Assembly: GCA_963744145.1 (NCBI GenBank)
Contig: CAVUSO010000001.1
Span: 6,368,001-6,432,000, forward strand
Source: an uncultured cyanobacterium
GTDB lineage: Bacteria; Cyanobacteriota; Cyanobacteriia; Cyanobacteriales; CAWUOF01
Length of the DNA stretch: 64,000 nucleotides
Reading direction: 5' to 3'
How positions within the stretch are numbered: the stretch's first letter is position 1; every line of letters starts with the position of its first letter. Below are positions 23,279 through 47,786 of the stretch, one piece after another. Position numbers and translations under genes: made by a program. The notes under the pieces are model-generated. The model ran no database searches, had not been told where the DNA came from, and was given only the letters and a program-made list of their open reading frames with translations.

Positions 23279-25327
23279 TTAAATTTTAGCACGAATTTTG
23301 CTCCAGAGAGTTTTATCTACTGGGATGCAAGCATCTGGAATTTCTATCTTAGGGGTATTGACATACATAGTACCTTCGTTTCCTCTCCAAATTGCTCTAC
23401 CGCATCCAGAATTGCCAATGGGAATCTTGGTAGCAGCAGAAAAAAGATTACCTAATACTGAATCTCCAGCATCTTCCGACACTCTAAATATGATTCTTTC
23501 ATCTAATTGGCTAGTAACTTGGGCGCTAATTAAACCAGCTTTTGGTGTCTGCGTACAATACATTAAATGAATTCCAAATGCACGTCCTTTACGAGCATAT
23601 TCTTCTAATTTTCCTTCAATTGCATCTCGCATCTTTGAAGTTTTGGAGTTTATAGGTATGTCAGCAGCTTCATCCACCACAAGTAAGATACGCTGTACAT
23701 TCACACCAGACTTTTGTAATTGTTCTATATTTGAAACGCGCTCTTCATTTAGTAAAGTCTGACGTTTTTGATAATCCTCAGAATAGATTGTCTCTAGTAA
23801 TTTTTGAGCTTCTTCCATATCATTGACTAGCTTGACGTTTTCTTTCAATAATTCTATTTCTTTATAAAAATGAAAGTCTACCTTTTTAAAATCAAAAATA
23901 TACACCTTACGTTCTGGATTTGCATATAAAAACTGAAACATTACCCAGTGAAGAAAATTTGTTTTTCCAGATCCATTAACCCCAGCTACTAAACGATGAG
24001 CTATTGCATTCCACTCAGAGCAGACAATACTCCCATCGTCGTTCATACCAATAATATACTTGTCTTCAGTAATTTCATAGCTGTACTGGCTGAATATTTC
24101 TTCAGCAGTCGGTTTAATAAAACTAGGTTGTTCTTGAGGAATACCAGGTACTGGGTCATCTCCTGAAACTACTATGCGAAAAAGACTGCTAATTTCTTGG
24201 GGAGTTACTAATCGATGTAGCAATTTTAATGCACTTGGATTAGTTGAAACCTTATTGCTATCGGGGGAACTTTCAAAATACTTTCCTAATGACCAGGAAT
24301 CATTACTTTTGACAATTTCACCACTAGATGATAGAAGATTTTCATCACGTAGAGGCTCTGTCTCAGGTAATCTGATAATATCGCGATTTGAGTTCTGAGA
24401 TTGAGATGCTCTTTTAGTTATTTGTTGCTCAAAATCACTTTTCCATTCGCTCCTTTCAATATCGGTGAAAAGCTCTACGTTTTTAGTTGCCATTAAACTT
24501 TTATTAAAATCTTCACTTCCTCGCTTTAGGATAAACCTGTGATACTTTTGTCCATAATTATCATCTTTGAAAGCATTTTGTATTAAAGCTTTAATCACTA
24601 AATCTATATGGTCACTAGACTCAGATAAGATTCTTATACTGTACTTGAATAAATTTCTATCATGGGTAACGTAGGAGTTTAAATACTGGTTATAAATATC
24701 TTTAGCGATATTAAGTTCGTTAGTGATTATATGCGTGTTGTAATATCTGGAAGTGTTTTGTTCTATCTCTCTAAAAGTTTGTTTAATTGTAGTTTTGATT
24801 GATTCTTTATCACAATTGCTGCAAGTTTGTAGGGTGAATTCTATAATTAATTTTTTATCCAATACGTTTAATTGTTTGCACAGGGATAACATATCATGAT
24901 CTAGGTATGGTTGAAATAAGTATGGTATGTAATATCCTTGATTTTTAGGGAATTTTTCATCTTTAATAATTTCGCAGATCACATCCACCCAATCTTCTAG
25001 TTGGTGTATCAAATCAGGTTGATCTTTGACAGATTGAAATTTATATAATTCTCTCAAACTAATATCATTGGTCAGAATATTAAAGGCTGACTTTACCTTT
25101 ACATTATCACCATCAGCATGATTAATACTCAAATAAATTTTGAGTCGCTGTTTAACATCTTTTGTGGGGTTGTAAACGTAGCGAAGAGAAACTACCAAGT
25201 TAGCAAACTGTTTTGGATCGCTGAGGGATTCCAATAAATTTTGCTGCTCTTTTATAACCTTACTACGCTTGGAACCAAGGTTGCGAAGTTCTGGAATTTG
25301 AAGGTGTAAGGGTGCAATATTAGTCAT
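23279..25327 (-). CDS. FtsK/SpoIIIE-like P-loop ATPase with a large unknown N-terminal domain and no TM segment
   Basis: HRLVAGVNGSGKT Walker A, IFDFK, LLVVDEAAD Walker B, RKGRAFGIHLMYCTQ arginine finger and Q motif, GRAI. Confidence 0.85.
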   Translation of the reverse strand: MTNIAPLHLQIPELRNLGSKRSKVIKEQQNLLESLSDPKQFANLVVSLRYVYNPTKDVKQRLKIYLSINHADGDNVKVKSAFNILTNDISLRELYKFQSVKDQPDLIHQLEDWVDVICEIIKDEKFPKNQGYYIPYLFQPYLDHDMLSLCKQLNVLDKKLIIEFTLQTCSNCDKESIKTTIKQTFREIEQNTSRYYNTHIITNELNIAKDIYNQYLNSYVTHDRNLFKYSIRILSESSDHIDLVIKALIQNAFKDDNYGQKYHRFILKRGSEDFNKSLMATKNVELFTDIERSEWKSDFEQQITKRASQSQNSNRDIIRLPETEPLRDENLLSSSGEIVKSNDSWSLGKYFESSPDSNKVSTNPSALKLLHRLVTPQEISSLFRIVVSGDDPVPGIPQEQPSFIKPTAEEIFSQYSYEITEDKYIIGMNDDGSIVCSEWNAIAHRLVAGVNGSGKTNFLHWVMFQFLYANPERKVYIFDFKKVDFHFYKEIELLKENVKLVNDMEEAQKLLETIYSEDYQKRQTLLNEERVSNIEQLQKSGVNVQRILLVVDEAADIPINSKTSKMRDAIEGKLEEYARKGRAFGIHLMYCTQTPKAGLISAQVTSQLDERIIFRVSEDAGDSVLGNLFSAATKIPIGNSGCGRAIWRGNEGTMYVNTPKIEIPDACIPVDKTLWSKIRAKI

Positions 25328-28115
25328 TAATACCTCTTCCAGTAATCTAGAATGCTTACAGCATTTTTTAACCTTTTAGATTTTACTTCTAAATTTCGTG
25401 CTTTAAACTTTTTATATCCATCAGAAATGGCAATCAATATAGGTATATAAAATACAAGTATAAGACCTATTTGAAGCCAGTAAGCTATATTTTTAATATT
25501 AGTAATAGCTATATGAATACACAGAGGCACATATAAAAATATAACCCATATACAAATCATGACATAACGGTTTGCAGATTTTAATACTACTGATAATATT
25601 GTAGCTATTATAAATGATATGCTCGATATTACCGTTGTCTCATTTAGAAATGATATTAAATATATTAAAAATGCTAAAAATGCTAAAAATACCATTATGT
25701 TTAAAAGTCTTGGATCACGCGGCGTTAAATCACAAATTTGAATATCTAAGCTGCTTATAAGGCTATCCACATTGTCCTCTATCACTTCCTTAAAATTAAT
25801 TAATTGCTTATTTAGTTGACTACAATTATTATATGTATTTGGGTTACAGGTTTTAATTATTTTACTGTTATTATTAGCTATTATTTTCCTATAAACTCCT
25901 CTATCAATCTTTTTGATACTATCAATTGTTGTAGATATTAATTTACAATTTTCTGTAATTAAATTTTGATAATTTATTATGGAAGTAATTTTATCATTTA
26001 GAGTATTAATATATTGAGATAAATGTTTTGTATAAGCTGTGAATTTAGATGATAATAAATTGCTTACCTTGCTTGAATGAGCATCACAAGCTGATACAGC
26101 ACTCGAAAAAATATGATTAATTTTTTCGGCATTTTTCTGCTTTCCCTTAATATTTGCATTTCTTATTTTAAGTTCAATGTCTGGAATACTTAAAGAGTTT
26201 AATTCCATTTCTTCTAGAATAAACACCTTCCTACAGATCAGATTCGTAAATTCTATTAATTTCTCATCCAATTGAACATATTTATTATATGTACTTGGTT
26301 CTGAATCTTTAATTAATGTATAATTGCTGTTTGCTTGCAGATCGTTAGAAATCTCACTATTAACCGTCTCTAAATTACTAACTATTGTCAATATTAATTG
26401 ACGATTTTTTTATAAACAACTCTTGAAAATTTTCAAGAGATTTTACTTGATTTTCAAGACGATTGATATATTCATTTAAACTATTAAGGTAATTATCTAG
26501 GTTAGATAAAAATAGGCTTTTAACTTGATTTTTTATTTTATATTTATTAGTATTACAATCTGATAAAGCACTTGAAAAAATACCGTAAATTTCTTCTCTA
26601 CGCTTCTTAATATTTAAGATTTCAGATTCAATTTCCGAAATATTTAAAGAGTTTAATTCCAGTTCTTCCAGAATAAATACCTTTCTATAGATCAGATTCG
26701 TAAATTCTATTAATTCCTCATCCACATCCAATTGAACATACTCATTATATGTACTTGGTTCTGAACCTTCAATCAATCTATAATAGCTGCTCGTTCGCAG
26801 ATTTTTATATACTTCACTATCAAACACCTTTAAATTACTAACTATTGTAAATATCAATTGGCGATTTTTTATAAATAACTCTTGAAGACTTTCTACAGAT
26901 TCTAATTTATTTTCAAGACGATTGATATATTCATCTAGAGTTCTTACGTGATTCTTTAGATTGGATGAAAATATGTTTTTTACCTGATTTTTTTTCTTGA
27001 TTGGTTACCTCATATTCATGAGTATTACAAGCTGATAAAGCACTTGAAAAAATACCGTTAATTTCTTTTCTATATTTATTAATATTTACTATTTCACATT
27101 TAATTTCTAGAATACTTAAAGAATTTAATTCTAGTTCTTCCAGACTAAAATTAAATAACAGTGCTTCAAGAATAGATAATGATTTATCATCGAGTTTTTG
27201 CTTATATGGTGTTAATATATGAATAAGCCTATTTCTAAATTTTTCTTCTGAATATTGGAGAAAATTAGAAATTTCTGTAAAGATTGGGGATAAATTAATC
27301 TGATCAGCAACAATTATAGGAAGTAGTTGAAGTGATTCTTCTATAACTATGTAATTATTTTCACTGTTTAATCCATTCTTAACTCCTCTTAAAAAGAGGG
27401 GTTTTAATACGTCTTGAACCAGAGATTTATAATCTTCTGAGCGTAATTTATAATTTTCTGAGCGTAATGGTAGGCTGAATAATTCCCAAATTGGCCCATA
27501 CATCCAAAAATCAAGGTAGTCTTGATATTGTGTACTGAAAACGCTACCAGTGTAATTAACACGCAAAATTGGTCTATTATTACTATTAAGTGGCTCAACT
27601 TGCTCCTCAATCATTTTTTGGTAAAGCCGAGGTGCATTTATTCCCACAGGAATTGAATAATTCTTACCCTGCTTTTTCCATTCTTCATCGTACCAAATTG
27701 ATCTGATTACAGAAAGAGCTGACAGTCTGATTAGGGGAGTTTCTCCATGTATAGCTTCATGCTTTAGTACAGTCAATAAATTTTGGCTGACATCATTGCT
27801 TAATGCAGCGATCGCGCTCTTTTTGACCAGATCAGGAATTTTACCAAATGCTTGAATCACTAAGGCACGAATGAGATAATTCTCATGTCCTCTTCTATCA
27901 GATTCAGATATATCTTTTCCTAAAATTCCATGATTAGGGATGTCCAACACTTCAAAAAATGGATCTAGTCCACACTTTCTTAATGTTGCATCAATTATGT
28001 CTAGTTTTTTCCAAGGTTCAGATGCTATAGTGAGGGCGAGAATTAGTTCATCGCGATCGCATCTTATGGGCTGAGGAGTGCTGTCCCATTGTGATGTCCG
28101 CTGAAGATTGTCCAT
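25327..28115 (-). pseudogene. Single ~928-aa protein (helical N-domain, three ~153-aa repeats, 3-4 C-terminal TM helices) split into three ORFs by two +1 poly-A frameshifts
   Basis: ORFs 26931-28115, 26378-26857 and 25327-26391 share the repeat (LEELELNSLSI.EI...IFSSALSAC). Removing one T from the runs at 26988-26995 and 26405-26411 gives 2787 nt = 929 codons in a single frame with colinear repeats. Confidence 0.8.
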
Positions 28116-28309
28116 ACTATCTGGTGTTTATAGGGGCATAGCAGCAGGGGTTGTTTCTTTTATTGACCCTGGTTTAATCTAAAATAGATGTGATAAAAGT
28201 ATTGTAGCCAGATTTATTCGTTTTGTCTATCTTGAGCATCCACCCTTGTCCATGCTCATCAACGATTAGAGGTGATGCGATCGCCATGTCTAGCTGGACT
28301 TAAATATAA

Positions 28310-28425
28310 AGTATTTTTGGGGATCTCGGCGTAGAACTGGGCGAAGCATTCGGGGATAAGATTAACCGTTTTATTGTTCAATTGTCGCCCGCTATGCCTC
28401 CGGCACGCTACGCGAACGCCCCTAC
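28310..28425. repeat. MITE/REP remnant with nested mini-element
   Basis: GGGCGAAGCATTCGG arm and inverted arm CGCCCCTAC, as in the MITEs at 11200 and 48774. Confidence 0.65.
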
Positions 28426-28657
28426 AGGTAAAATTGCTCTCATGTGCGATTAGACGTGATGCGATCGCTCCTCCGATCCCAAAAAACTGTTAGGTAACAA
28501 ATCGACTTGCTTACACGACCACTTGATGAATTAATCGCAATGGTAGAAACTGGTTTGCAAGAGCAACGTCTGGCTAGACTTCAAGGTCAAGGTCAAGGTC
28601 AAGCAGCAGAGACTATTAAGCGGTAACAGAAAAAGTGAAACCCATTAGATTAACTAA

Positions 28658-28850
28658 TCATGCGAAATGTTGAAAATTTTTCACAAAGGTGCCGTCGGAT
28701 TCAGGTAATTTGGTATGATCGGGAAAAGAAGGAGGTAATATGGTCGGGTCAAGACTTCTGCCCATAGTTCTTAGCTATCCACAACAGGAATGACTAGATG
28801 CTTGATTTAAGTATAGCAATTTGAGATTGATCAGCTCGATCAGGTTTAAT
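28658..28850 (-). pseudogene. 5' remnant of a Uma2 gene (copy 2) plus conserved leader
   Basis: MGRSLDPTILPPSFPDHTKLPESDGTFVKNFQHFA* at 28658-28765, followed by the same leader as copies 1, 3 and 4. Confidence 0.85.
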
Positions 28851-28965
28851 AGGTTTTGGCAATTCTGGTTTGACAAAGTTTTTTTTCAGATTAGTTTCAG
28901 GAACTGGCTACACCCAATAGTTATTGACGCGATTGGAATTAATGAGATTAAGGAGGAATTTCTAG

Positions 28966-29442
28966 ATGGGAACCTATTATGGATTAGGAGTAGTGAAAAA
29001 TTTTGAAACTAGAACTAGCACTGAATTGACCACCCAAGAATTAGAAACCGCTGTGAACGAAAGGCTTAATCTTGACTTGTTTGATGTAACAATTACCAAT
29101 CATCAGTTGCATGGGACACTGAAAGCAAATTTATTCCAAGATCATGTGGAAGATTTTTTTAGCAAATTGCAAGCAATTGTGACAAGGAGTTCGGTTAAAT
29201 TCTATTGGGAGGAGTTTGGAAATGATATTGACCAATATCCTTATGAGCATTGCACTCTTAAGTTCTCTGATGCTCAGAATCATCAGATTACTATCAACAT
29301 GGGAGTAGTTTTTCTATTTTTTGAAGGTAAAGTTTCTGTGGAGGAATTTGACTTAGAACCATCCCTGATGAATTGGTTATTTCGACACAGTAATTTTGAT
29401 AATATCCTAGCTGGAGCAATTATGAGTGATATTATTGGTTGA
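28966..29442 (+). CDS. Hypothetical acidic protein, 158 aa
   Basis: Strong AAGGAGG RBS; no recognised family. Confidence 0.7.
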   Translation: MGTYYGLGVVKNFETRTSTELTTQELETAVNERLNLDLFDVTITNHQLHGTLKANLFQDHVEDFFSKLQAIVTRSSVKFYWEEFGNDIDQYPYEHCTLKFSDAQNHQITINMGVVFLFFEGKVSVEEFDLEPSLMNWLFRHSNFDNILAGAIMSDIIG

Positions 29443-29551
29443 TGCGGTGAATTGTGGAATATTAGAAGACAATTTGCTTGTTCAGGAGAAACCAATGCAA
29501 TGAACAAGCGATTTCTTCGGAAAGCTTGGCTAGAGTACCCTATTTCAATAC

Positions 29552-30328
29552 TCAAATTAGATCGGGATCGATTCCTTGCGATCGCAAATAAGCAGCCAAT
29601 CGTTCTTTCTGTTGCTGTTCTCGATCAGCCCGTTGACGTTCAAGTTTAGCTTGTTCACTGCCAGTTAGCAACAAATTGCCTTGACTATCCCACCAACGTA
29701 ACCAGCGCTGGGTCTGATTTTGATAGCTACCTTCCCACACTCCTAATTCGATTCCCATCAGGTCAATTGGGTAATGTCCCCGCTCATTCGGCTGTAAACG
29801 GTGATAACGAGTATTCACCCAGTTGTATACTTCCAATTCACTGGTTTTGATGATATATATCGCATAGTAAGGAATCCGAATAATCTGCTCATATACCCAA
29901 AATTTCCCAGGTTTCTGATTGCTCCTTTCCGATGAACGAGATAGGGGAGTATTGTCTCGTTCTTCGGCACCATTTCCACTCGCTAATTCGATCGCGATTA
30001 AGGGTACACTATATTCGCGCCAGATCACATAAGAACGGCGAATTTGACCATCTAATAGAGGTGGAACATTAGGAACATAGAACCAATCCGGTGCTTCCGC
30101 TCCCCGTTCCGGAGGATCTGTTTCTCGACCATAGATACCACTATCTTGTCCGATCGCATATTAACCATCTGGATGGAGAGTTTGTAATGTAGTTTCCAGA
30201 GAGTCAGTCAGCAAGATACATTGGGGATGTTCTTGAAAGTTTTTCACGAAAGTGCCGTCGGATTCAGGTAATTGAGTATGATCGGGAAAAGGAGGGGGTA
30301 AGATGGTAGGATCAAGACTTTGGACCAT
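29552..30328 (-). pseudogene. Uma2-family endonuclease copy 3, nonsense mutation
   Basis: Near-identical to copies 1 and 4; CAA>TAA at 30161-30163; no heptad repeats in the tail. Confidence 0.9.
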
Positions 30329-30451
30329 AGTTCTTAGTTATCCACAACAGGAATGACTAGATGCTTGATTTAAGTATAGCAATTTGAGATTGAGCAGTTT
30401 GCTCAGGTTTAATATCTATAATATATACCTATAACTCAAAATCTACAGTCT

Positions 30452-31534
30452 ATGAAATATCCTGAAGAAAACCTGGCAAAAGATTTATACTATGAGCTAT
30501 CTCAGCATTTTGCTGATCGAACTCCTTTAATAGAATATAAAATTCAGGGATGTGGTGTTCACTGGCTTTGTACTGTTAAGCAAAATGATAACTTTTGTTC
30601 TATAGACTGTTTCCACGAACGGGATGGGATAGAATACTGTATATCTTTTGAGCGGAATGCTGAGAAAATTGCTGAGGGACGGACATCTGCTAAATTTGAA
30701 GCTATTCATGCAGTTGATGACTGGGTTCAAGGAAGTGAACTTTCTATTCTTTATGATAAATTTTTGTTTGTTGATCGAAACAAACGAGATATTTTTGATG
30801 TCCGTGATGATTTGGTAGCCAATTTTCCGGAGTTATCTCCATTAGCAGAGATCGAAGAGAAGTCAAGTCATTTCTGTCAGCTTTGGTTTAAATGGGATGA
30901 TCGACTAGCTCATATTACATTTGGTGATATTAATAAAGAAACGCTCAATATAGATTTCTATTGGGATAAAAGTAGTATCCTATTCAATACCAAAAACTGC
31001 GATCGCAAGCTGTTGGCAAAAATTCTCAAACGATGGGTTTATGATCGCGCTTTACCATCGGTAATCAGAACAGAATTTCCATCTGTCGAGATTAGTAAGC
31101 TTGCTGATTTTTATGAGCAAGGTAATCCAATTGAAGGTGAATTCCTAGAAAGTTGGGACTCAATTGAAAAGTTTTATGAGTCCATGTCTGGATTTTATGG
31201 TGAATTACTCAATCCCATGATTGAATTAGTAAAATCTATCAGAAAAGAAAATTATGATCGGCAGCTTAGAGCTGGACAATCAATGTTATTCTTATGTTTG
31301 AGCCGATCGCAATCTCATGGAGCATTAGGTGTAAATTACTTAGTTTTTGCAGGTGAGAATAACAGTTATGAAATTAATGGAGAAGAGAAAATAAGTCAAA
31401 GTTTGCAAGTTACTTATTATGCTAATGGTGCGATCGCTGAAAAATTGGTAGAAAATGAGATTGCGCTAACTAATCCAATCAGAAAACTGTTACAAAAATT
31501 GTCAGAGCAACTAATTTATATATGTTCGATGTGA
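30452..31534 (+). CDS. Hypothetical protein, 360 aa
   Basis: Long ORF divergent from Uma2 copy 3; its 5' end is duplicated at 40871-40986. Confidence 0.75.
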   Translation: MKYPEENLAKDLYYELSQHFADRTPLIEYKIQGCGVHWLCTVKQNDNFCSIDCFHERDGIEYCISFERNAEKIAEGRTSAKFEAIHAVDDWVQGSELSILYDKFLFVDRNKRDIFDVRDDLVANFPELSPLAEIEEKSSHFCQLWFKWDDRLAHITFGDINKETLNIDFYWDKSSILFNTKNCDRKLLAKILKRWVYDRALPSVIRTEFPSVEISKLADFYEQGNPIEGEFLESWDSIEKFYESMSGFYGELLNPMIELVKSIRKENYDRQLRAGQSMLFLCLSRSQSHGALGVNYLVFAGENNSYEINGEEKISQSLQVTYYANGAIAEKLVENEIALTNPIRKLLQKLSEQLIYICSM

Positions 31535-32129
31535 CAAAAATAGGGGCAAAATTAGCTTGCCCCTAAAAGAATCAGTTTACACACCCTCAGCAATAATTCT
31601 TTGGAATTGATTGACTAAGTGGCTTTGTAATTCGGCAAAATCTTCGATCGCTTTTTCTAATTGAGTTTGACGTACCCGTTTTAAAGTTGGGTTTTGGATT
31701 TTTTCTGCTTCAATCATTAAGACCTCCATCCGGGCAATAAATTCAGAGAATATCTGATCTAAATTGCATTCTAGTTCTAATTTTTTCTCCATTAAGAAAG
31801 CGGCTGTGGAACTGCGGATTGCAGCTTTTTCGCGGACTAAATATTGATTACAGTGTTCGGTTAGGGATTGAATTTGGGTTTCTCGGACTTTTGCTAAAGC
31901 ACGACGACGAAATTCAAATTCATCTTTAATTAAGGCTAATTCTCCTTGAACTGCTGCCCGAGTTCCTGCGTCGGGTAAAAAGCGTTGTAAAAAACCTTGG
32001 CGTTTTTCCATGACATGATCAATTGCTGCTTGAGCATGATCGTTAATCCGACCAATGGGAGCTGCTGTATGTTGGAGTTCGCTACCTTTTGCCATTAAGC
32101 TATTAATCTGATAGGAATTAGGGTTAGAC

Positions 32130-33311
32130 CAGAAATGTTGAATCTTGATACAAAACTTTACATATGTTGACATACGGATGCAAAAATGACAAATTTTTCA
32201 ACAAAGCATCACCTCCTCAAACCAATGGACATAGCTAATTTTTTGACACATACATGCTTGAAGATAGCGAATTTTATCTAATAATTTTTCTCCCCATTCT
32301 GGCGGAATAGATATTAGTTGTAAAATTAGATATGCGATTAAACTAGCATAAATTTGAATGGTAATTCCATTGACATTTTTCGTAATTAATTTATCTAGTT
32401 TTAGGTGCATTTTGAGAAATTTCCATAGCAATTCTATTGACCATCTTAATCGATAGATATCTAACAGCTCTTGCTCTGATATACCTTCTTCGCCTTCTCG
32501 AGGTAAATTAGTGATCAATCTAAATTCTGTTCGCGTTTCTAGATCACAAAAACTTACTACTCTATAAGCTTTAGCTTTTGGCGAAGCTCCCACTTTTATT
32601 AATTCACTGTCTGGACAATATTCTAATTTCCAATTGTTTTTTATTCTCATGACAAAATATTTATTGTTTTGGACTAAATCTTCGATAAATTCTAATCCAG
32701 CAAAACCTCTATCCATTACTCCTACTGCGTTTTCTGGTAAATCAGCTATCATGTCCTTGCCGAATTTATAATCATGATCTTGGCCAAAGTTTATCAGGCT
32801 ACTCTCACAATTTCCCTTACTTAAATTTAAAGAACTAAATAATTTTACTTGATGATATCCTTGTAAATATAAAAGTTTACTTGTTAAAGTAATTATTGTT
32901 GAATCAATGGGACATATTAAATATTTTGCACCAAATTTTTTGGGATTTTTTTGATTGACTAATTGCTTTAAGGTTTCAAAAATTTTTTGAAATGGTTTTT
33001 GACTTCGATGTTTATTTGCCTTAGAAAAAGTGGAAATATCTACCTCAAATCCTGTCAGATTTAAACGCTTAAATAAATCCCGCATACTGGTTAAACTTTT
33101 ATCTAACGTATAACCCAACCATAGCTCCACGAACAAGCGGCTATTTAGAACGGGATAATCAGTTTTAGATAGCCCCTTCAATAAATGCTTGACAATTTTA
33201 GGAAATGAATAGAAAATCATAATCAATTATGTTTTTTTAGATTTTACCACCTAAATTATCACATAATTTGGGTGGTTTTTCTCCCTTATTTTCTAACATT
33301 CAACATTTCTG
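32130..33311 (-). mobile_element. IS4-family insertion sequence
   Basis: Perfect 14-bp TIR CAGAAATGTTGAAT / ATTCAACATTTCTG; 9-bp TSD GGGTTAGAC at 32121-32129 and 33312-33320. Confidence 0.95.
32198..33226 (-). CDS. IS4-family DDE transposase
   Basis: IDST, VMDRGF, YRLRWSIELLWKFLK (YREK signature). Confidence 0.95.
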   Translation of the reverse strand: MIMIFYSFPKIVKHLLKGLSKTDYPVLNSRLFVELWLGYTLDKSLTSMRDLFKRLNLTGFEVDISTFSKANKHRSQKPFQKIFETLKQLVNQKNPKKFGAKYLICPIDSTIITLTSKLLYLQGYHQVKLFSSLNLSKGNCESSLINFGQDHDYKFGKDMIADLPENAVGVMDRGFAGLEFIEDLVQNNKYFVMRIKNNWKLEYCPDSELIKVGASPKAKAYRVVSFCDLETRTEFRLITNLPREGEEGISEQELLDIYRLRWSIELLWKFLKMHLKLDKLITKNVNGITIQIYASLIAYLILQLISIPPEWGEKLLDKIRYLQACMCQKISYVHWFEEVMLC

Positions 33312-33394
33312 GGGTTAGACATATTTGGTTTTCTCCTGGTTGGATGTTGTAGTTTTCTTATTTTCTATGCTAGAAAAACTTTAGCTAAATGTCT

Positions 33395-33410
33395 GTCGAT
33401 AAATATCGAT
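33395..33410. promoter_or_regulatory. Two 10-bp-phased RTCGAT boxes upstream of the helical gene
   Basis: TCGA at 33396 and 33406, about 75-85 nt upstream of the ATG at 33322. Confidence 0.45.
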
Positions 33411-33440
33411 TTTTGTTGTCGTTAGTGATTGAATGTGATT

Positions 33441-33895
33441 GAGCGCAGAAGAAGGGTGAAGCATTCGGATATAATACAGCGGATGACCTGTTGATGAAGT
33501 ACAGTAAGATTTGGCATGAATAGCGATCAGTTAAAGTCGCTGGTGAGTGATCTGTGTTGGTTGGGCAGGTTTATGATCGTGATCTGTTTGGAGCAGAATT
33601 GATTGGTGAACCTGCCCCTACAAATCCCGGTTGATTGTGATCATAAATTCATTCACCTGCCCCTACAAATCCTGTTAATCTTGTAATCCTCTAATCCTGA
33701 TCGATTTTTCGGTGAATCCCTGTAGGGGCGGGTTCACCGTTGAATTTGCCACATACAAATAACCTTAATGAACCCGCCAGGAAACCACAGATCACCTTGA
33801 TGAACTTCATAAACCTGGAATAAGCTGTATTACTGGTTTCAGCGCTCAATTGTCGCTAAACATGCTTCACCCCTACACTTAACTGAACCGTATTG
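33441..33895. repeat. Composite dispersed repeat (REP arms, shared ~150-bp core, one MITE TIR)
   Basis: Core GTTGATGAAGTACAGTAAGATTTGGCATGAAT...GTTGGTTGGGCAGGTTTATGA recurs at ~47470-47620, ~49005-49125 and ~58885-59000; CTTAACTGAACCGTATTG ends at 33895. Confidence 0.8.
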
Positions 33896-33922
33896 ATCTA
33901 AATTAACCGTCTCAGTTCTGGG

Positions 33923-35275
33923 TTAATTGAAAAGATTTCTTAACCTAGTGGTAGCATAATTGATCAAATTATTCACTTTTTCTTTAACCTCCTGTTGTTT
34001 CTGTTGATCGCGATACAAGTTTTGAGCAGCAGCATTTTGTTGTCGTTTGACAGCAGTGCGAATCGATCGAGGAATCCGATATTTACTGACCAGCTTTAAC
34101 AGTTCTTGCTTAGTATGCTTGATGATTTCATCCGCGATCGCTTCCATAACTTCCGGCATCTTATCACTGGTAGAAGCTTGTTCGATCGCTTTTTGATGTT
34201 GGTCTAGTTCAAGTTGTTTTTGACGGGATACTATTTCCCTGGTATTCTTAATGTCTTGTTCGGCATTTTCTATTAATTGATGTTCACGAAGTTCTAACAA
34301 AGCATCATAGGGGCTACGTTTGCTGAGTAATTTGACAAATAGTGGTGCTGTATCGACGACGATAAATAACCAGGAAATCGCATTACTTGCACTTTTAATC
34401 GCAGGATTTTTATGACATAATCGGTCTAAAATGTTGAGTTGAGTTATAATATCATCAGCGTTTTCTTGCGCTGTCTTCATGGTTTGAAGTTGTTGGTCTT
34501 TCTGGTTTTTCAGTTGGTTGATTCGTTCGTGATTTGTTTCTATTTTTGGTTGTGCTGTGGTTTTAAATGATGCTAATTCTTGTTCCTGTTGTTGACAAAG
34601 GGTTTCTTTTTGTTGATAGACTGGTCCAAGTCCGGGTTTACCTGTTCCACTGCTTCCTTCCGCTTCCGCGATCGCTTTACCACAGAGTTGATCGCGTGTT
34701 TTTTCTTTCTGGAGACGTTGTTCTTCTAATTTCTGGTTCTCTAGTTCTAATTGATGAATTTCTGGCATTCCCTGATCTAATTTTTTTTGAACTTCAATCG
34801 TCACTTCGATATTTTTTTGACCTATTTCCGCGAAAATTGGCTTTTCAAATAGCTTTAGTTCTAGTGGTTTTGCTACTACAACTGCAATTAAAAAAGCCAC
34901 AAAAACACGGATAGCTGCTGTAAGAAATTGTCCTAGAGTAGGTTTTTTTTCTTTGCGGGTGGAGATGATAATTGAGCGATCCATATTTAAGATGAACGCA
35001 CCCCAAAAAATTCCTAAACAACAAGAGATTGTTGGGTCTTTGAAAATTGTAGCGAAGGCGTAACCTCCTGATAAGATACCAGCACCTGTAGTTAATAAAA
35101 TTGATATTCCTATGGCTGTATGTTTCTTGCGATCGCTTTCTGTAGATTGTTCTAATAAATCGGGATCACTTCCAGCAATCAGCCAAAGTATTCTTTTCAT
35201 AAATTTTCCTCTTTTTTGAGAGTGATGGGAAAATGTGGGAATATTCCCTATGTTTAAAAGCCTAATGAATATCAA
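33923..35275 (-). CDS. DUF4407 membrane/coiled-coil protein (start more likely 35200)
   Basis: Three N-terminal TM helices with WG..ILNMDR and AKPLELKLF, coiled coil with AEAEGSSGTGKPGLGP, a further TM helix, then a helical tail. Confidence 0.8.
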   Translation of the reverse strand: MIFIRLLNIGNIPTFSHHSQKRGKFMKRILWLIAGSDPDLLEQSTESDRKKHTAIGISILLTTGAGILSGGYAFATIFKDPTISCCLGIFWGAFILNMDRSIIISTRKEKKPTLGQFLTAAIRVFVAFLIAVVVAKPLELKLFEKPIFAEIGQKNIEVTIEVQKKLDQGMPEIHQLELENQKLEEQRLQKEKTRDQLCGKAIAEAEGSSGTGKPGLGPVYQQKETLCQQQEQELASFKTTAQPKIETNHERINQLKNQKDQQLQTMKTAQENADDIITQLNILDRLCHKNPAIKSASNAISWLFIVVDTAPLFVKLLSKRSPYDALLELREHQLIENAEQDIKNTREIVSRQKQLELDQHQKAIEQASTSDKMPEVMEAIADEIIKHTKQELLKLVSKYRIPRSIRTAVKRQQNAAAQNLYRDQQKQQEVKEKVNNLINYATTRLRNLFN

Positions 35276-35296
35276 AGAAAGAGTCTATTTGGTTAT

Positions 35297-35338
35297 GTCG
35301 ATTTTTGGAGGTATCGACTTTTGTCGATTTTTATCGAT
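35297..35338. promoter_or_regulatory. Phased RTCGAY boxes in the divergent DUF4407 / HTH-DUF4384 intergenic region
   Basis: TCGA at 35298, 35314, 35324 and 35334; the last three are exactly 10 bp apart. Confidence 0.55.
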
Positions 35339-35506
35339 TGAGGGGAAACACTATAGACATTTCCAAAAAATTTGTTTAGTATGGCAATGACAAAATAATT
35401 CAGAGCAACTAGATATTGCTAAAACTAATACTATCTAGATTAGGTAAATTTTGTCAATTGGTTGAGAGTTAAGTTCAGATCACTTATCCAAAAAATTTGA
35501 AAGGAA

Positions 35507-36391
35507 TTGAAGAAAATGAAAACATTAATCTCCTATGATAACTATGAATACGATTTTATGGATGCGATGGTTAATCGTTTTAATTTGTCTGGGAAAAAAG
35601 AAATAGTTTTTCGCAGCCGTTTTGTTAAAGATAATGATGGTTGTCTTCATCAAAAATTAGCTGACCAAAACAGTAAATATTTAGCTGATGAATCCCCAAA
35701 TGCTGGTCAAATTTATCGACAAAACTTATCCTCGATTTCCGATAAGCTCGAAGAAATGGGATGTCCTCCCAGTACAGGAGCGGATCGTTGGAAAAATTGC
35801 CGTTTGTGGTTACGGGAGGAAATGTTTAAACAGTGGGCTAAAGAGCAGGGTTTGATCAAACCGTTAACAATTGAGGACTGTTGGAATGAATTAAAAGCAA
35901 AGGGTAAAAGTTCTCAATCGATAACAGGGAAAATAGAATCACAGTTGATCGTGGAAAAATGGGAACCACAATTATCAAAAATGGGAGCAAGACCAAATAT
36001 CAATCGTCAATCATTCCCACTGAATAGCGATTTGATTTATAAGGTGATTTCTCCCCAAGTTGGACATTTATTGCTATTTGAACAGGAACCTAATGGTACT
36101 ATAGTTTGTCTGTGTCCCTCAGAATTTGCCCCATCTACCTCCTATCTAGGGAAAGAAGTCCAGTTACCCCATATTGACTCTGAGTATATGACTTTTGGGT
36201 CTGATGAGATCGGGTCGGAACAATTGATTGCGGTGATTATTCCAGAGTTACCACCGTTTCAGTGGTTGGAAGATAGTCGTCAGGAAGCGTTGGAGTTGAA
36301 TCAAGAGCATTTAGCAGAAGTGTTAGACTATGTGAATAGTCAAACCAAGGTTGAAGTTTTATATACGGAATATTCGATCGCTGCATTTTAA
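35507..36391 (+). CDS. N-terminal LuxR/sigma4-like HTH fused to a C-terminal DUF4384-like beta domain
   Basis: LS..KE.VF..RF......LA.......IYRQNLSSISDKL resembles an HTH; GHLLLFEQEPNGTIVCLCPS...G.EQLIAV resembles DUF4384. Confidence 0.65.
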   Translation: MKKMKTLISYDNYEYDFMDAMVNRFNLSGKKEIVFRSRFVKDNDGCLHQKLADQNSKYLADESPNAGQIYRQNLSSISDKLEEMGCPPSTGADRWKNCRLWLREEMFKQWAKEQGLIKPLTIEDCWNELKAKGKSSQSITGKIESQLIVEKWEPQLSKMGARPNINRQSFPLNSDLIYKVISPQVGHLLLFEQEPNGTIVCLCPSEFAPSTSYLGKEVQLPHIDSEYMTFGSDEIGSEQLIAVIIPELPPFQWLEDSRQEALELNQEHLAEVLDYVNSQTKVEVLYTEYSIAAF

Positions 36392-36439
36392 GAGTAATTT
36401 TTTTATTAAAACAACTAGCTTTATTAGAGAAAAACTCTG

Positions 36440-39400
36440 ATGAAGCAGTTTTTAGATGATTTAAAAATAGTAATGGGAGAAGGAAAAATGAATTTTTTCA
36501 AGAAGTTGTTTAAATGTTTAAGTCAGCGTTTGAAATTTTTATTAATACTTAATCAACAAGTTAATCAGCTTTATAATCAAGGCAAATTTAATGAAGCGAT
36601 CGTTGTTGCTGAACAAGCATTAACGTTAGCTAAAACTCTTCATGCTAATGATCATCTTGATGTGGCTACCAGTCTGAATAACTTGGCATTACTCTACAAC
36701 TCCCAAGGAAGGTTAGAGGACGCAGAACCTCTCTACCTCCAAGCCTTAGACATGAGAAAACGCCTATTTCCCGGCGACCATCCTAATGTGGCTGCCAGTC
36801 TGAATAACTTGGTATCACTCTACAACTCCCAAGGAAGGTTAGAGGAGGCGGAACCTCTCTTGCTCCAAGCCTTAGACATGACAAAACGCCTATTTCCCGG
36901 CGACCATCCTGATGTGGCTATCAGTCTGAATAACTTGGTATCACTCTACAACTCCCAAGGAAGGTTGGGGGAGGCGGAACCTCTCTACCTCCAAGCCTTA
37001 GACATGAGAAAACGCCTATTTCCCGGCAATCATCCTGATGTGGCGAACAGTCTGAATAACTTGGCATCACTCTACCACACCCAAGGACGGTTGGGGGAGG
37101 CGGAACCTCTCTTTCTCCAAGCATTAGACATGAGAAAACGCCTATTTCCTGGCAACCAGCCTGATGTGGCGAACAGTCTGCATGAATTGGCATTGCTCTA
37201 CCACACTCAAGGACGGTTGGGGGAGGCGGAACCTCTCTTTCTCCAAGCTTTAGACATGACAAAACGCCTATTTCCCGGCGACCATTCTTATGTGGCAATA
37301 TGTCTAAATAGCTTGGGACATCTCTACCACACTCAAGGACGGTTGGGGGAGGCGGAACCTCTCTTTCTCCAAGCATTAGACATGAGAAAACGCCTATTTC
37401 CTGGCAACCAGCCTGATGTGGCGAACAGTCTGAATAGCTTGGCATCACTCTACCACACTCAAGGACGGTTGGGGGAGGCGGAACCTCTCTACTTCCAAGC
37501 TTTAGACATGACAAAACGCCTATTTCCCGGCGACCATAATGATGCAGCAAGATGTCTGAATAACTTGGCAATGCTCTACCAAGCCCAAGGACGGTTGAGG
37601 GAGGCGGAACCTCTCTATATCCAAGCCTTAGACATGACAAAACGTCTATTTCCCGGCGACCATTCCTCTGTGGCAATATGTCTAAATAACTTGGGATCAT
37701 TATTACTTGTTACAAACAAGCATCAAGAAGCATTTGAAAAAATGTATGAAAATATCGTAATGGAAACACGTTTAATTCAGCGAAATTTCGCTTTTAGTTC
37801 AGAAAAAGAACGACTAGAGTCAATAAAAAGTAAGAAATATGAATTTGATGCTTTCCTTTCCTTAGTATCTAAATATTTTTCTAACTCTTCTGAACAAGTT
37901 CAACAAACATTAGATGTAGTTCTCAAACGTAAATCTATTACTGCCGCAGCATTAGCACAATTGAATTTTGCGATTCATAGTCAACGTTATTCCCATCTCA
38001 AACCTAAGTTTAATCAACTTCGTTCTCTCCAAGAACAACTATTTTATCGTCAGAAAAACCTTCCTATTTACGATCCAGAAGCCCCCAAAGAAATTTATCA
38101 GATTCGGTTTGAACAGTATCAAAAAGACCTTGCCGAATTAAATCAACAATGTCAACAGTTGGAAAAGGAACTAAGCACCGAAATCCCAGAAATGAACCTC
38201 GAACATCAAACTATTGATCGTCGTGCTATTGCTTTAGAATTACCTGACAATAATGTCTTAGTTGAATATGTGCAATTTAAACGTTATGACTTTACCGCCC
38301 CCAAAGGTCAAGAATGGAAATCACCGGAATATTGGGCGTTTATTTTACCCCCTCAACATCCAGATCAAGTACAGATGATTTCTTTAGGAGCAGCCCAACC
38401 CATTGATGATTTAATTCACAAGGTACGACAAGTCTTAATCATGCCTGAAAATGATGGTTACTCAACCAGTGCTAGGAAAGGTAAAACAAAAGATGAAACC
38501 CTAAAAGTCTCCTTAAAGAAGTATGAATATCAACTCGAATCAGCCCATGATTTACGGAAAAAAATCTTCACCCCCCTGGTTCCTATATTGCAAAATTATC
38601 AAAACATTCTGATCGCACCCGATGGAGAATTAAGCCTAATTCCCTTTGGAGCTTTACCGACAGAACAACCAGATAAACTCCTCAGCGATCGCTATCAAAT
38701 CAGTTATCTCAGTAGTGGTCGTGATCTCTTAAGATGGAAAATAAAAACCGATCGCACCGCTTCAGAATCTTTCATAATTGCTAATCCTAATTTTGACTAT
38801 CCAGCCCCGCCAAAATTGCCCGAATCTGCACCTAAAACCCCGCTCCAAACAGAAGATATTCCTAACCCTAAACCTAAATTCAAAAATCTCTCTAGTGCCC
38901 CCGAATTTCCGCCCCTGCCAGAAACAGAAACTCTCGCCAAAAAATTAGCAACAAAATTAAATATACCCAACCTTTATCTCCAAGATCAAGCCCTAGAAAC
39001 ACTCTTTACAGCAACAACCAATCCCCGGATATTAGTAATCGCTACTCATGGAGATTATGAAGCCAAAGATGAGCAAACCTACCCGCAAGAAAACAGCTTC
39101 GATCGCTTGATAACTCCACCTAAAGACAATCCCATGATCCGGAGTTATTTAGCCCTAGCGGGAGCCAATACCTCGCGCCAAGGACAAACCTTACCCCCAG
39201 AAGCAGGTAAAGGAATATTATCAGCAGAGGATATCGCCGCGATCGATTTATGGGAAAACGAATTAACCATTTTAATTGCTTGTCAGACGGGATTAGGAGA
39301 GGTAGTAATCGGAGAGGGAGTATTTGGGTTACGTCGAGCCTTTGCGATCGCGGGATGTAAAGCATTAATAATGAGTTTATGGTCAGTACCGACCCTAGCT

Positions 39401-39658
39401 TCTCTCTTATTAATGGATGAATTTATCAACCAAATTCAACAGGGAGTAGGGAAACGAGCCGCTTTAGTGACAGCCCAAAATTATCTTCGTACTATTACCA
39501 TCGAAACCTTACAAACCTTGCCCACTGGTGATGATATTCTCAAGGAATTCATTGAGCAAAGGATCATCTCTGAGGAATATATAAAAAATAATCCAAATTA
39601 TCAATTGTTATCCCACCCTTATTTTTGGAGAGCCTGGATCTCTCAGGGAGAATTTTAA
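36440..39658 (+). CDS. TPR-CHAT caspase-like protease
   Basis: Eight 42-aa TPRs, helical linker, IAPDGELSLIPF, catalytic ATHG and IACQTG, SLWSV, HPYFW. Confidence 0.95.
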   Translation: MKQFLDDLKIVMGEGKMNFFKKLFKCLSQRLKFLLILNQQVNQLYNQGKFNEAIVVAEQALTLAKTLHANDHLDVATSLNNLALLYNSQGRLEDAEPLYLQALDMRKRLFPGDHPNVAASLNNLVSLYNSQGRLEEAEPLLLQALDMTKRLFPGDHPDVAISLNNLVSLYNSQGRLGEAEPLYLQALDMRKRLFPGNHPDVANSLNNLASLYHTQGRLGEAEPLFLQALDMRKRLFPGNQPDVANSLHELALLYHTQGRLGEAEPLFLQALDMTKRLFPGDHSYVAICLNSLGHLYHTQGRLGEAEPLFLQALDMRKRLFPGNQPDVANSLNSLASLYHTQGRLGEAEPLYFQALDMTKRLFPGDHNDAARCLNNLAMLYQAQGRLREAEPLYIQALDMTKRLFPGDHSSVAICLNNLGSLLLVTNKHQEAFEKMYENIVMETRLIQRNFAFSSEKERLESIKSKKYEFDAFLSLVSKYFSNSSEQVQQTLDVVLKRKSITAAALAQLNFAIHSQRYSHLKPKFNQLRSLQEQLFYRQKNLPIYDPEAPKEIYQIRFEQYQKDLAELNQQCQQLEKELSTEIPEMNLEHQTIDRRAIALELPDNNVLVEYVQFKRYDFTAPKGQEWKSPEYWAFILPPQHPDQVQMISLGAAQPIDDLIHKVRQVLIMPENDGYSTSARKGKTKDETLKVSLKKYEYQLESAHDLRKKIFTPLVPILQNYQNILIAPDGELSLIPFGALPTEQPDKLLSDRYQISYLSSGRDLLRWKIKTDRTASESFIIANPNFDYPAPPKLPESAPKTPLQTEDIPNPKPKFKNLSSAPEFPPLPETETLAKKLATKLNIPNLYLQDQALETLFTATTNPRILVIATHGDYEAKDEQTYPQENSFDRLITPPKDNPMIRSYLALAGANTSRQGQTLPPEAGKGILSAEDIAAIDLWENELTILIACQTGLGEVVIGEGVFGLRRAFAIAGCKALIMSLWSVPTLASLLLMDEFINQIQQGVGKRAALVTAQNYLRTITIETLQTLPTGDDILKEFIEQRIISEEYIKNNPNYQLLSHPYFWRAWISQGEF
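36659..37699 (+). repeat. Eight full and one partial 126-bp near-identical TPR-coding repeats
   Basis: The unit GAACCTCTC...CAAGCCTTAGACATGA.AAAACGCCTATTTCCCGGC recurs every 126 bp. Confidence 0.95.
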
Positions 39659-39790
39659 TCAATAATATTTTACATCAATAAGAGCAAATAACAAAATATG
39701 AAATTAAATCAAATCACCAGCAACTCTAATGAATGAAAATTAAATAACATGATAATCGCTATGTAGTTTCGCTCTTGGCGATTAATTTAT

Positions 39791-39854
39791 GGACGGGCAA
39801 GATGCCCGTCCCACAAGGGCTATTTTTTTGGTGGGACAGGCATCTTGCCTGTCC
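39791..39854. repeat. Inverted pair of REP-like palindromes
   Basis: GGACGGGCAAGATGCCCGTCCCAC ... GTGGGACAGGCATCTTGCCTGTCC between convergent genes. Confidence 0.75.
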
Positions 39855-39886
39855 TATTTATTTTTGCAAGGGGTCTAATCAAACGC

Positions 39887-40747
39887 TCAAATTAAATCGG
39901 GATCTATTCCTTGCGATCGCAAATAAGCTGCTAATCGCTCTTTCTGTTGCTGTTCTCGATCAGCTCGTAATGTTTCAGCCTCAGCTCGTAATGTTTCAGC
40001 CTCAGCTCGTAATGTTTCAGCCTCAGCTCGTTGACGTTCCTGTTCAGCATGGAGACGTTCAAGTTTAGCTTGTTCACTACCGGTTAGCAACAAATTGCCT
40101 TGACTATCCCACCAACGTAACCAGTGAGTAGTCTGATTTTGATAGCTACCTTCCCACACTCCTAATTCGATTCCCATTAGGTCAATTGGGTAATGTCCCC
40201 GCTCATTTGGTTGCAAACGGTGATAACGAGTATTCACCCAGTTATAAACTTCCAATTCCCTGGTTTTGATGATGTATATGGCATAGTAAGGAATCCGAAT
40301 AATCTGCTCATATACCCAAAACTTCCCAGGTTTTTGATTGCTCCGTTCGGGTAAACGAGATAGGGGAGTATTGTCTCGTTCTTCGGCACCATTTCCACTG
40401 GCTAATTCGATCGCGATTAAGGGCACACTATATTCGCGCCATAATACATAGGAACGGCGAACTTGACCATCTAATAGGGGTGGAACGTTAGGAACATAGA
40501 ACCAATCCGGTGCTTCCGCTCCCCGTTCCGGAGGATCTGTTTCTCTCCAATAAATCCCACTATCTTGTCCGATCGCATATTGACCATCTGGATGGAGATT
40601 TTGCAGTGTAGTTTCCAGAGAGTCGGTTAGCAAGATACACTGGGGATGTTCTTGAAAGTTTTTCACGAAAGTGCCGTCAGATTCAGGTAGTTGAGTATGA
40701 TCGGGAAAAGGAGGGGGTAATATAGTGGGGTCAAGACTTATGCCCAT
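39887..40747 (-). CDS. Uma2-family endonuclease copy 4
   Basis: Nearly identical to copy 1; tail has three AEAETLR heptads. Confidence 0.9.
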   Translation of the reverse strand: MGISLDPTILPPPFPDHTQLPESDGTFVKNFQEHPQCILLTDSLETTLQNLHPDGQYAIGQDSGIYWRETDPPERGAEAPDWFYVPNVPPLLDGQVRRSYVLWREYSVPLIAIELASGNGAEERDNTPLSRLPERSNQKPGKFWVYEQIIRIPYYAIYIIKTRELEVYNWVNTRYHRLQPNERGHYPIDLMGIELGVWEGSYQNQTTHWLRWWDSQGNLLLTGSEQAKLERLHAEQERQRAEAETLRAEAETLRAEAETLRADREQQQKERLAAYLRSQGIDPDLI

Positions 40748-40870
40748 AGTTCTTAGCTATCCACGACAGGAATGACTAGATGCTTGATTTAAGTATAGCA
40801 ATTTGAGATTGAGCAGTTTGCTCAGATTTAATATCTATAATATATATCTATAACTCAAAATCTACAGTCT

Positions 40871-40986
40871 ATGGAATATCCTGAAGAAAACCTGCCAAAA
40901 GATTTATATGGGCTATCTCAGCATTTTGCTGATCGAACTCCTTTAATAGAATATAAAATTCAGGGATGTGGTGTTCACTGGCTTTG
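40871..40986 (+). pseudogene. Truncated duplicate of the 5' end of the 30452-31534 gene
   Basis: Matches 30452-30570 with small indels; homology stops abruptly at 40986. Confidence 0.85.
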
Positions 40987-41097
40987 ACTATCCTATCCCC
41001 AGTTAATCCTAATTTAGGTTTCCTTGAACAAAATTAATCAGTTTTAACTATAATGGAAACGAATTCATATCGAAAATAATCGGAGAAAAATATTATT

Positions 41098-42150
41098 TTG
41101 AAAACAATTAATTTGCAGAAGATTGGTACATACATTGTAGCTGGGCTAATAGCTAGTTTTAGCATGGGCTTTCCTTCAAAAGCCAGTAGTGATATATTGC
41201 CAACTTCAAACTACCACATAGTCAAAAAAATCCCTTTGGGTGGAACCGGAGGATGGGATTATCTAACGTTAGATAGTTTTGCCCATCGGCTATATATTAC
41301 ACGCTCAACCAGGGTAACAGTATTAAATGTTGATACTGGGGTAGTGGTGGGTGAAATACCTAATACTGCTGGAGTACATGGTGTAGCTATTGCGACCGAA
41401 TTGAATCGTGGTTTTACTAGTAATGGGAAAACTGCAACAGCTACTATATTCGATTTAAACACGCTCCAAGTGATCGGACAAGTGCCCACTGGTAATAACC
41501 CAGATGCAATTGTTTATGAACCCGCATCTCATCGAGTTTTTACTTTTAATGGTAGAAGTAATTCAGCCACTGTTTTTGATGCTAAAACTGCTAAAGTTGT
41601 AGGGACAATTGCCTTAGATGGTAAACCAGAATTTGCAGTTGCTGATAGTTTTGGGCAAATTTACGTCAATATAGAAGACAAAAGTGAAGTTGTAGTTTTA
41701 GATGCGACTAATCTCCAAGTAAAAGCAAATTGGTCGCTAAAACCCTGTTTAGAGCCAACTGGAATCGCGATCGATCGACAGCATCAACGGCTATTTGTCG
41801 GTTGTAGAAACAAAATGATGAATGTCCTAGATACAAATACAGGAAATATTAAAGCTACTCTACCCATTGGTAGTGGAACAGATGCGATCGCTTATGATCC
41901 AGAGACTCAACTCGCTTTTAGCTCAAATGGTGAAGGTTCTATCACCGTAGTACATGAGGATTCTCCCGAGCAATTTCGGGTGGTAAATAACGTTGTTACC
42001 CAGCAAGGAGCGCGAACAATGGCGTTAGATTTAAAGACACATAAACTATATTTGGTGACAGCTAAATTTCAACCCCTATCTAACCCTATTCCTGGACAAA
42101 GACCAAATATTATCCCTGGTAGTTTTGTAGTTCTAGTTTTAGAAAATTAA
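41098..42150 (+). CDS. YncE/YVTN-type beta-propeller protein with signal peptide
   Basis: GGWDYL, GVHGVAIA, GNNPDAI, GKPEFAV, PTGIAID, GARTMALD repeats. Confidence 0.85.
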   Translation: MKTINLQKIGTYIVAGLIASFSMGFPSKASSDILPTSNYHIVKKIPLGGTGGWDYLTLDSFAHRLYITRSTRVTVLNVDTGVVVGEIPNTAGVHGVAIATELNRGFTSNGKTATATIFDLNTLQVIGQVPTGNNPDAIVYEPASHRVFTFNGRSNSATVFDAKTAKVVGTIALDGKPEFAVADSFGQIYVNIEDKSEVVVLDATNLQVKANWSLKPCLEPTGIAIDRQHQRLFVGCRNKMMNVLDTNTGNIKATLPIGSGTDAIAYDPETQLAFSSNGEGSITVVHEDSPEQFRVVNNVVTQQGARTMALDLKTHKLYLVTAKFQPLSNPIPGQRPNIIPGSFVVLVLEN

Positions 42151-47620: not shown

Positions 47621-47786
47621 TAGTAGCGATCGCTCTGAAAACATGGTGATCGCACTCCACCATCCAGAATTAAAACACGATTATCTCTTCCAAAATACTT
47701 AACACTTTTTAACCATAATTTCTGCTGGACACTTTTTCTAACTGTATGCTATTATTTATACAGAACCCTGTAGATTATTGGTGGTT

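Follow-up and report, generated by a model that had tools for sequence, protein, structure and literature searches.

A conserved partner gene and TPR-CHAT protease gene form a candidate CRISPR-independent protease module of filamentous cyanobacteria

Among the closest described counterparts of the genes studied here are the TPR-CHAT protease Csx29 and its substrate Csx30. As laid out in the available portion of a preprint by Kato et al., Csx30 consists of a helical N-terminal domain, a linker and a beta C-terminal domain, is cut by Csx29 after M427, and in one group of proteins has a C-terminal domain that is DUF4384. For orthologues of Craspase, the accessible part of the report by van Beljouw et al. 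gives cleavage sites between L and D, M and K, and A and S. In this study, we examine a two-gene cassette, comprising a gene for a DUF4384-type partner protein and a gene for a TPR-CHAT protease, which lies in a stretch of 64,000 nucleotides (the window) from an uncultured cyanobacterium (assembly GCA_963744145.1, contig CAVUSO010000001.1, positions 6,368,001 to 6,432,000). An original prediction, made from the letters and open reading frames (ORFs) of this stretch, had likened the pair to Csx29 and Csx30 and had placed it in a four-gene transcriptional circuit. The likeness has backing in the literature, through the DUF4384 domains of some Csx30 proteins; the circuit fares differently, as set out below.

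Other described systems combine small helical proteins, DUF4384 or caspase-like proteases. In the accessible parts of two papers (PMC7159879, PMC8195603), Kaur et al. describe effector-associated domains (EADs) as small helical domains that stand on STAND cores and also on separate proteins, and propose that they couple by like-with-like contacts. The EACC1-caspase system in the first of these papers has a small protein encoded 5' of a protease, EACC1 being defined there by a conserved transmembrane (TM) helix. A 2025 preprint by Evans et al., in its available portion, presents protease-licensed effectors as a general logic and names ten module families. In cyanobacteria, DUF4384 is fused to 23 of 473 orthocaspases, and two reviews name it as an orthocaspase accessory domain. 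No published description of the cassette was found among the titles, abstracts and text passages retrieved from the full-text literature; the N-domain of the partner might stand under another name in the source data of Kaur et al. or in bioRxiv supplements. By their titles, the papers on TPR-CHAT proteins among the matches listed concern mostly type III-E or other CRISPR systems, and no cyanobacterial CHAT cassette appears among these titles.

We read the cassette as a standalone, CRISPR-independent module of multicellular (filamentous) cyanobacteria, made up of a protease and an adaptor or substrate, with cell death or immunity as its output, and give this reading slightly better than an even chance. 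The conservation of the pair, its domain make-up, the intact dyad, the common N-domain and a variable TPR array of near-identical units are seen directly.

The locus survey covered one genome per species, searched with an alignment of 28 partner homologues, and returned 40 loci. Four of these end before the downstream region; in each of the other 36, TPR and/or CHAT sequence comes next, on the same strand as the partner gene, as the original prediction of a conserved pair would have it. The downstream TPR-CHAT gene is intact in 23 of these loci, cut by a contig end in six, interrupted by masked runs of N in four and decayed in three. In the decayed cassettes (L030, L033 and L036) what is left of CHAT is a split gene or a remnant, and the partner of L036 is truncated too. 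Clustering of the neighbours of all 40 loci revealed no other gene that recurs across clades, those recurring within clades being housekeeping genes or genes for DUF4351 proteins. The flanks of the cassette vary by clade, with genes for a G6PD-like protein, Ycf48, HisRS, a PALP enzyme or PurU, and the two genes therefore either move together or are retained together. Some genomes carry two or more cassettes (L015/L024, L013/L021 and L016/L020). Distances among partners correlate with distances among the CHAT parts (r 0.86), which is expected from common descent and is thus not independent evidence of pairing; the partner is generally the faster-diverging of the two. By gene order and homology, the functional unit appears to be two genes, the partner gene followed by the TPR-CHAT gene.

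The protease gene (36440-39658, plus strand) begins 48 bp after the stop of the partner gene and encodes 1072 aa. Residues 700-1070 match CHAT (PF12770, clan CD) with 170 bits against a cut-off of 24 (E 1e-49), and a long TPR array is matched by TPR_10/TPR_12 at E ~1e-100. At the DNA level the array (36653..37699, plus strand) consists of a 126-bp (42-aa) unit in 8.3 copies with 87% matches, and the length of the TPR region ranges from 245 to 755 aa across the 23 orthologues in which the CHAT start was placed. The catalytic dyad (39047..39283, plus strand) is formed by His870 (39047-39049, within ATHG) and Cys948 (39281-39283, within IACQTG). Both residues are invariant in the 24 orthologues aligned, and the dyad, as already proposed, is intact. 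A complex predicted from the CHAT part (632 aa) and the partner scored 0.02 against a mark of 0.32, a result that weighs neither way.

The partner ORF extends from TTG 35507 to 36391 on the plus strand and encodes 294 aa, the length given in the original prediction; the start is most likely ATG 35516 rather than TTG 35507, which gives a gene of 35516..36391 and a protein of 291 aa equal to database protein P0001. Homologues of this protein number 73, of which 57 carry PF14326; those with a named source all come from filamentous cyanobacteria, and the sole annotation of the family in the database is 'DUF4384 domain-containing protein'. An AlphaFold2 model built on the family alignment is confident (mean pLDDT 85.4) and shows helices at residues 7-135 and a beta domain at residues 166-289, with pLDDT below 50 at residues 136-139 and 153-162. 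On the plus strand, this corresponds to an all-alpha N-domain of 7 helices (residues ~1-135; 35516..35920), a linker of low model confidence (residues ~136-165; 35921..36010) and a beta-rich C-domain (residues ~166-289; 36011..36382). The two poorly modelled stretches coincide with the linker that had been proposed at residues 135-165. Assignment of the C-domain to DUF4384 (PF14326) depends on the family: the window protein alone scores 19.5 bits, below the Pfam cut-off of 27 (E 1e-3), whereas each of the 28 family members aligned reaches E<=0.01, the best at 8.2e-14. On these profile matches, the C-domain is identified as a DUF4384 domain.

Within the linker, the motif LSKMG (residues 153-157; 35972-35986, plus strand) conforms to the pattern L-x-x-(M/L)-(G/W), the sole linker motif kept throughout the partner family, in which the Met/Leu column is occupied in 41 of 41 aligned sequences. 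We regard LSKMG as a candidate protease site. A second motif, PT(D/N)KMGPVL, is present in the majority of distant partners and missing from the clade of the window. Hydrophobicity in the partner stays below 1.6 in every 19-residue window, so that no TM segment is predicted, and the protein matches no enzymatic family in Pfam or NCBIfam. In a fold search of the whole partner against the PDB, all TM-scores were below 0.25. Longer fused forms of the partner were not found among 3238 candidates, which is weak evidence.

The N-domain had been taken for a helix-turn-helix (HTH) domain that would switch on transcription once released. When 35 N-domains were scanned alone, they matched no HTH family and no Pfam-A family of any other kind, EADs included, at E<=1, and NCBIfam gave no HTH match in the partner. 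A separate model of the N-domain (pLDDT 83.5) found 0 matches at E<=0.001 in the PDB, the best being sigma-70 region 4 at E=1.8 with TM-scores of 0.31/0.41. Against viral structures nothing was significant (best E 0.87), and a search of the Atlas returned its own family only (score 0.75). From sequence and model, the N-domain is an unnamed all-helical domain of roughly 120-135 aa and not a recognisable HTH.

A different set of relatives emerged when a profile of the 35 N-domains was searched against 1.84 billion representative proteins, giving 134 matches at E<=1e-3 and 68 at E<=1e-10. The domain scan took 44 of the 134, mainly proteins longer than the partner family, plus P0165 (an offset match) and five proteins of 220-295 aa; the 90 outside it are of partner-like length or short fragments. 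NTPases account for 33 of the 44 (28 with NACHT/NB-ARC, one with nSTAND3 and four with AAA_35), and in all 33 the N-domain match begins within the first 32 residues. The NACHT/NB-ARC proteins often also hold HEAT repeats, NCC-H, NCAB1, NCH2 or pentapeptide repeats. Among the other 11 proteins, one has pentapeptide repeats only, two have TPR only, one has HEAT only, one has a receiver domain and one has DUF4384; one is spurious and four have no domain. In the alignment, the N-domains of partners and NTPases have in common the blocks FLxxxA...FxG...VFLxRF, QDxLxxIC...GC and PW...WLW..FPEWQ. The N-domain is thus common to the partner and the N-termini of STAND NTPases, and its distribution follows the 'effector-associated' adaptor domain pattern (EAD-like). 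Since it is common to STAND NTPases and is not a detectable HTH, the predicted transcription switch is without basis.

The genomes of two N-domain NACHT proteins carry cassettes as well: P0114 is from Oscillatoria princeps RMCB-10, the source of L015 and L024, and P0205 is from the genome of L021. At another locus, the partner N-domain of L020 (L020:9998-10393) is 72.5% identical to the N-terminus of the NB-ARC protein P0085, whereas no other partner exceeds 55% identity to it; the proteases of L020 and L010 are 92% identical. These identities suggest, at the level of sequence comparison, that the N-domain is swapped between partner and NB-ARC architectures. The protein with a receiver domain, P0080 (545 aa), has a response-regulator receiver followed by the N-domain at residues 405-517, which is 90% identical to the N-domain of L026. 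It was considered as a new architecture of receiver plus N-domain and rejected; it is a single case, and in the closest loci the DNA upstream of the partner gene holds no receiver gene.

Two readings give the N-domain a role beyond that of a cleaved or docking part. One is an inflammasome-like pathway of three tiers, in which NACHT/STAND sensors encoded elsewhere in the genome would recruit the partner through like-with-like pairing of the N-domain that they share, the partner would be an ASC-type adaptor, and DUF4384 would recruit and activate the TPR-CHAT protease. We consider it unlikely. The other reading, of similarly low probability, makes the partner a latent death effector comparable to gasdermin, EACC1 or Pepco: DUF4384 would restrain the N-domain, cleavage by CHAT would free a lethal N-domain, and the N-domain of the NACHT proteins would be an effector head. 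The disordered linker with its conserved motif fits such a scheme, as does the gene order, which is that of the EACC1-caspase system in the accessible text of PMC7159879; partners of this kind are shown to be protease-activated effectors in the available portion of Evans et al., and the STAND N-terminus is also a site of effector domains in that of PMC8195603. Against it, the partner lacks a hydrophobic or TM segment, an enzymatic family match and a fold relative. Its first helix is moreover acidic. Heads that insert into membranes are not known to be of this kind.

Compared with Csx29 and Csx30, the cassette has the same arrangement of a TPR-CHAT gene beside a gene for a protein in which a linker joins a helical N-domain to a beta C-domain, and DUF4384 is the C-domain of the partner as it is of some Csx30 proteins in the available text of Kato et al. 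At the cleavage sites given in the accessible part of van Beljouw et al., the P1 residue after which Craspase cuts is hydrophobic (M, L or A), and the linker motif of the cyanobacterial partners has an invariant M/L position. The two systems differ in that the partner N-domain appears to belong to another family, one common to STAND NTPases, and in that the protease of the cassette is longer than Csx29, with a repeat-expanded TPR array. Cas7-11/gRAMP, Csx31 and RpoE were not found among 53 window ORFs scanned with Pfam, and the recurrent neighbours of the 40 loci are unrelated.

The cassette resembles the EAD systems in having an all-alpha domain, small and non-enzymatic, that heads NACHT/STAND proteins and also occurs on a separate protein beside a caspase-superfamily peptidase, in multicellular cyanobacterial hosts. 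Pfam holds models of named EADs. The N-domain matches no Pfam family at E<=1 and is not placed among EAD1-12 or bDLD; its second copy is fused to the non-enzymatic DUF4384 with no STAND gene adjacent, and copies from the same genome (P0114 and P0205 against the partners) are not closer to each other. The EACC1-caspase system resembles the cassette in its 5' small protein, its 3' caspase-like protease with a sensor region and its logic of proteolytic licensing, but the partner is without the TM helix. Nor is the partner family among the ten module names in the available portion of Evans et al. With the orthocaspases the cassette shares the coupling of DUF4384 to a caspase-superfamily protease in cyanobacteria; here, however, DUF4384 is on its own polypeptide and the protease is CHAT, not Peptidase_C14.

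The remaining two genes of the original four-gene proposal lie upstream of the cassette, on the minus strand. The DUF4407 gene (33923-35275, a 450-aa ORF) diverges from the partner gene across a spacing of ~240-315 bp, its probable start being ATG 35200 with a product of 425 aa. Its assignment was correct: PF14362 matches over its full length (1-297 of 297) with 234.6 bits against a cut-off of 31.3 (E 2e-69), and the protein has two strongly hydrophobic segments and a charged middle part. A small gene, previously put at ~184 aa, is present as an ORF of 198 aa (31577-32173, minus strand). Since L001, L003 and L005 are homologous to it at the DNA level only as far as ~32110, its start is most likely ATG 32095, which gives an extent of 31577-32095 (minus strand) and 172 aa. 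This product has no Pfam family and no TM segment, and its look-alikes by features are unnamed hypothetical proteins.

All four genes are therefore in place in the window, but they do not form a conserved unit of four. Among the 37 loci with at least 1.5 kb of upstream DNA, DUF4407 stands divergently upstream of the cassette in six and is absent from 31. The six comprise five close relatives (partner 65-74% identical) and the distant locus L037 (29%). The small gene follows DUF4407 in all four testable loci, on one strand and at a spacing of 114-193 bp in the relatives and ~1.8 kb in the window. Three loci that share upstream genes with L002 and L003 (L006, L008 and L012) and one that shares PurU with L001 and L002 (L007) are without both genes; DUF4407 plus the small gene is therefore an insertion or deletion of ~3 kb there. 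In the same four loci, the divergent position is taken instead by an ORF for a 116-aa coiled-coil protein with a hydrophobic tail and no Pfam match (L006:4989-5339; L007, L008 and L012, -200 to -310 relative to the partner gene). DUF4407 and the small gene are a separable, optional neighbour module of two genes, found in one sub-clade and one distant locus; the recurrence at L037 argues against pure chance, and they are therefore treated as optional neighbours that may be linked to the cassette. A search of the two genes against plasmids gave no match. DUF4407-like sequence is present in 15 Prevotella Lak megaphage genomes (e.g. MK250019.1, 485070-486056), with 26-27% identity over 79% of the query.

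The wide spacing in the window is occupied in part by a complete IS4 element (32129-33312, minus strand) that ends in 18-nt inverted repeats and is flanked by a 7-bp duplication of its target, GGTTAGA, at 32122-32128 and 33313-33319; its IS4-family transposase gene is at 32198-33226 (minus strand; NF033592, E 1.2e-57). The 198-aa form of the small gene runs into the end of this insertion sequence (IS), which lies 34 bp upstream of ATG 32095. By its position, the insertion has split a presumed DUF4407/small-gene operon. Between the IS and the DUF4407 stop there is also a repeat-rich spacer of ~610 bp (33313-33922) with internal inverted repeats; copies at 47304-47621, 49009-49127 and 58885-59000 have pieces that are 77-93% identical, and they resemble miniature inverted-repeat transposable elements.

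The two minus-strand genes had also been said to share an upstream motif. Their upstream regions have 12 8-mers in common against 6.7 expected, a number reached in 58 of 500 shuffles, and they share no 10-mer in the same orientation. The one 10-mer common to both is inverted between them; the whole window holds two occurrences of it where 1.07 are expected, and the one near the small gene falls within the IS. The motif is thus not above chance. These results bear on the complete circuit of the original prediction, in which TPR sensing activates CHAT, CHAT cuts an HTH-DUF4384 protein and the freed HTH induces DUF4407 and the small gene as membrane effectors. It is consistent with the conserved pair, the presence of a linker, the divergent DUF4407 gene in six loci including L037, and the appearance of a few HTH proteins (sigma-70 region 4, TetR and MarR) among the non-significant fold matches. 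We nevertheless judge it very unlikely, given N-domains that match no HTH family and have no better fold match than E=1.8, that head STAND NTPases instead, and a putative target gene missing from most loci, including relatives that share both flanks.

A further alternative is that the cassette serves housekeeping or development, as a protease paired with its regulator, for example in filament or cell-division control. HetF is an example of a protease with such a role. Its ordinary chromosomal neighbours, the synteny kept within Microcoleaceae, the lack of a PADLOC match and the restriction of the family to filamentous cyanobacteria (by named records) would suit this role. It is disfavoured by TPR repeats that are near-identical and vary in copy number, by the three decayed loci, by genomes with at least two copies (the three locus pairs named above) and by an N-domain common to NACHT NTPases. 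These four features are more typical of conflict systems, according to the accessible text of PMC7159879, and we hold a housekeeping role to be rather improbable.

Several observations weigh against the preferred reading of a standalone protease module with cell death or immunity as its output. PADLOC matched no defence model except one generic TPR model, the surroundings of the cassette are ordinary chromosomal genes, and the DUF4384 domain is no obvious effector. When all PDB chains were searched by sequence with a profile of the partner, with the CHAT part and with a CHAT profile, no relative of Csx29, Csx30 or separase came up. The N-domains of NACHT type, P0114 and P0205, share only ~33-35% identity with those of partners, without greater identity to the partners of their own genomes than to others, and neither the window nor any of the 40 loci encodes a second N-domain protein. 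The DUF4407 gene beside the distant cassette L037 hints at a link that is treated here as optional. Finally, we infer the contact between partner and protease and the cleavage of the partner, and likewise the trigger and the outcome.

Judged from the 53 ORFs, the rest of the window is unremarkable cyanobacterial chromosome, in which several IS and Uma2 genes occur. The genes described above are flanked by an ORF without a family (30452-31534) and by Uma2 nuclease genes. One of these, at 29552-30028 (minus strand, 158 aa), repeats the C-terminal part of a 286-aa Uma2 protein encoded at 39887-40747 (minus strand); the two bracket the studied region on the same strand, and at least six more Uma2 ORFs are present in the window. 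No RNA genes were found by an Rfam scan of 28000-42000 or a tRNA scan of 20000-50000. A block of low GC content at 23279-28115 (minus strand; 0.29-0.31 against ~0.38-0.40 nearby) holds an FtsK/SpoIIIE-like gene of 682 aa and ORFs of 354, 159 and 394 aa without a Pfam match, and is possibly a foreign or defence island. At 3407-7701 (plus strand), genes for a MoxR-type AAA_3 ATPase, a DUF58 protein and a transglutaminase-like protein stand in tandem.

If the cassette works as a standalone protease module, its variable TPR array may sense a protein cue or keep the protease inactive. The partner would dock on the protease and then be cut in the linker; alternatively, like-with-like contacts between N-domains may allow it to link STAND sensors with the protease. 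Proteolytic cell death or immunity would be the output. Were the three-tier pathway true, DUF4384 would be a protease-recruitment domain and the partner a member of a new adaptor family, and an adaptor role of this kind would provide a bacterial counterpart of sensor-adaptor-caspase signalling. DUF4384 gains a testable role as a partner domain of caspase-like proteases, both within CRISPR, in Csx30, and beyond it. The N-domain would be one more unnamed N-terminal domain that joins NLR-like NTPases to other proteins in multicellular bacteria.

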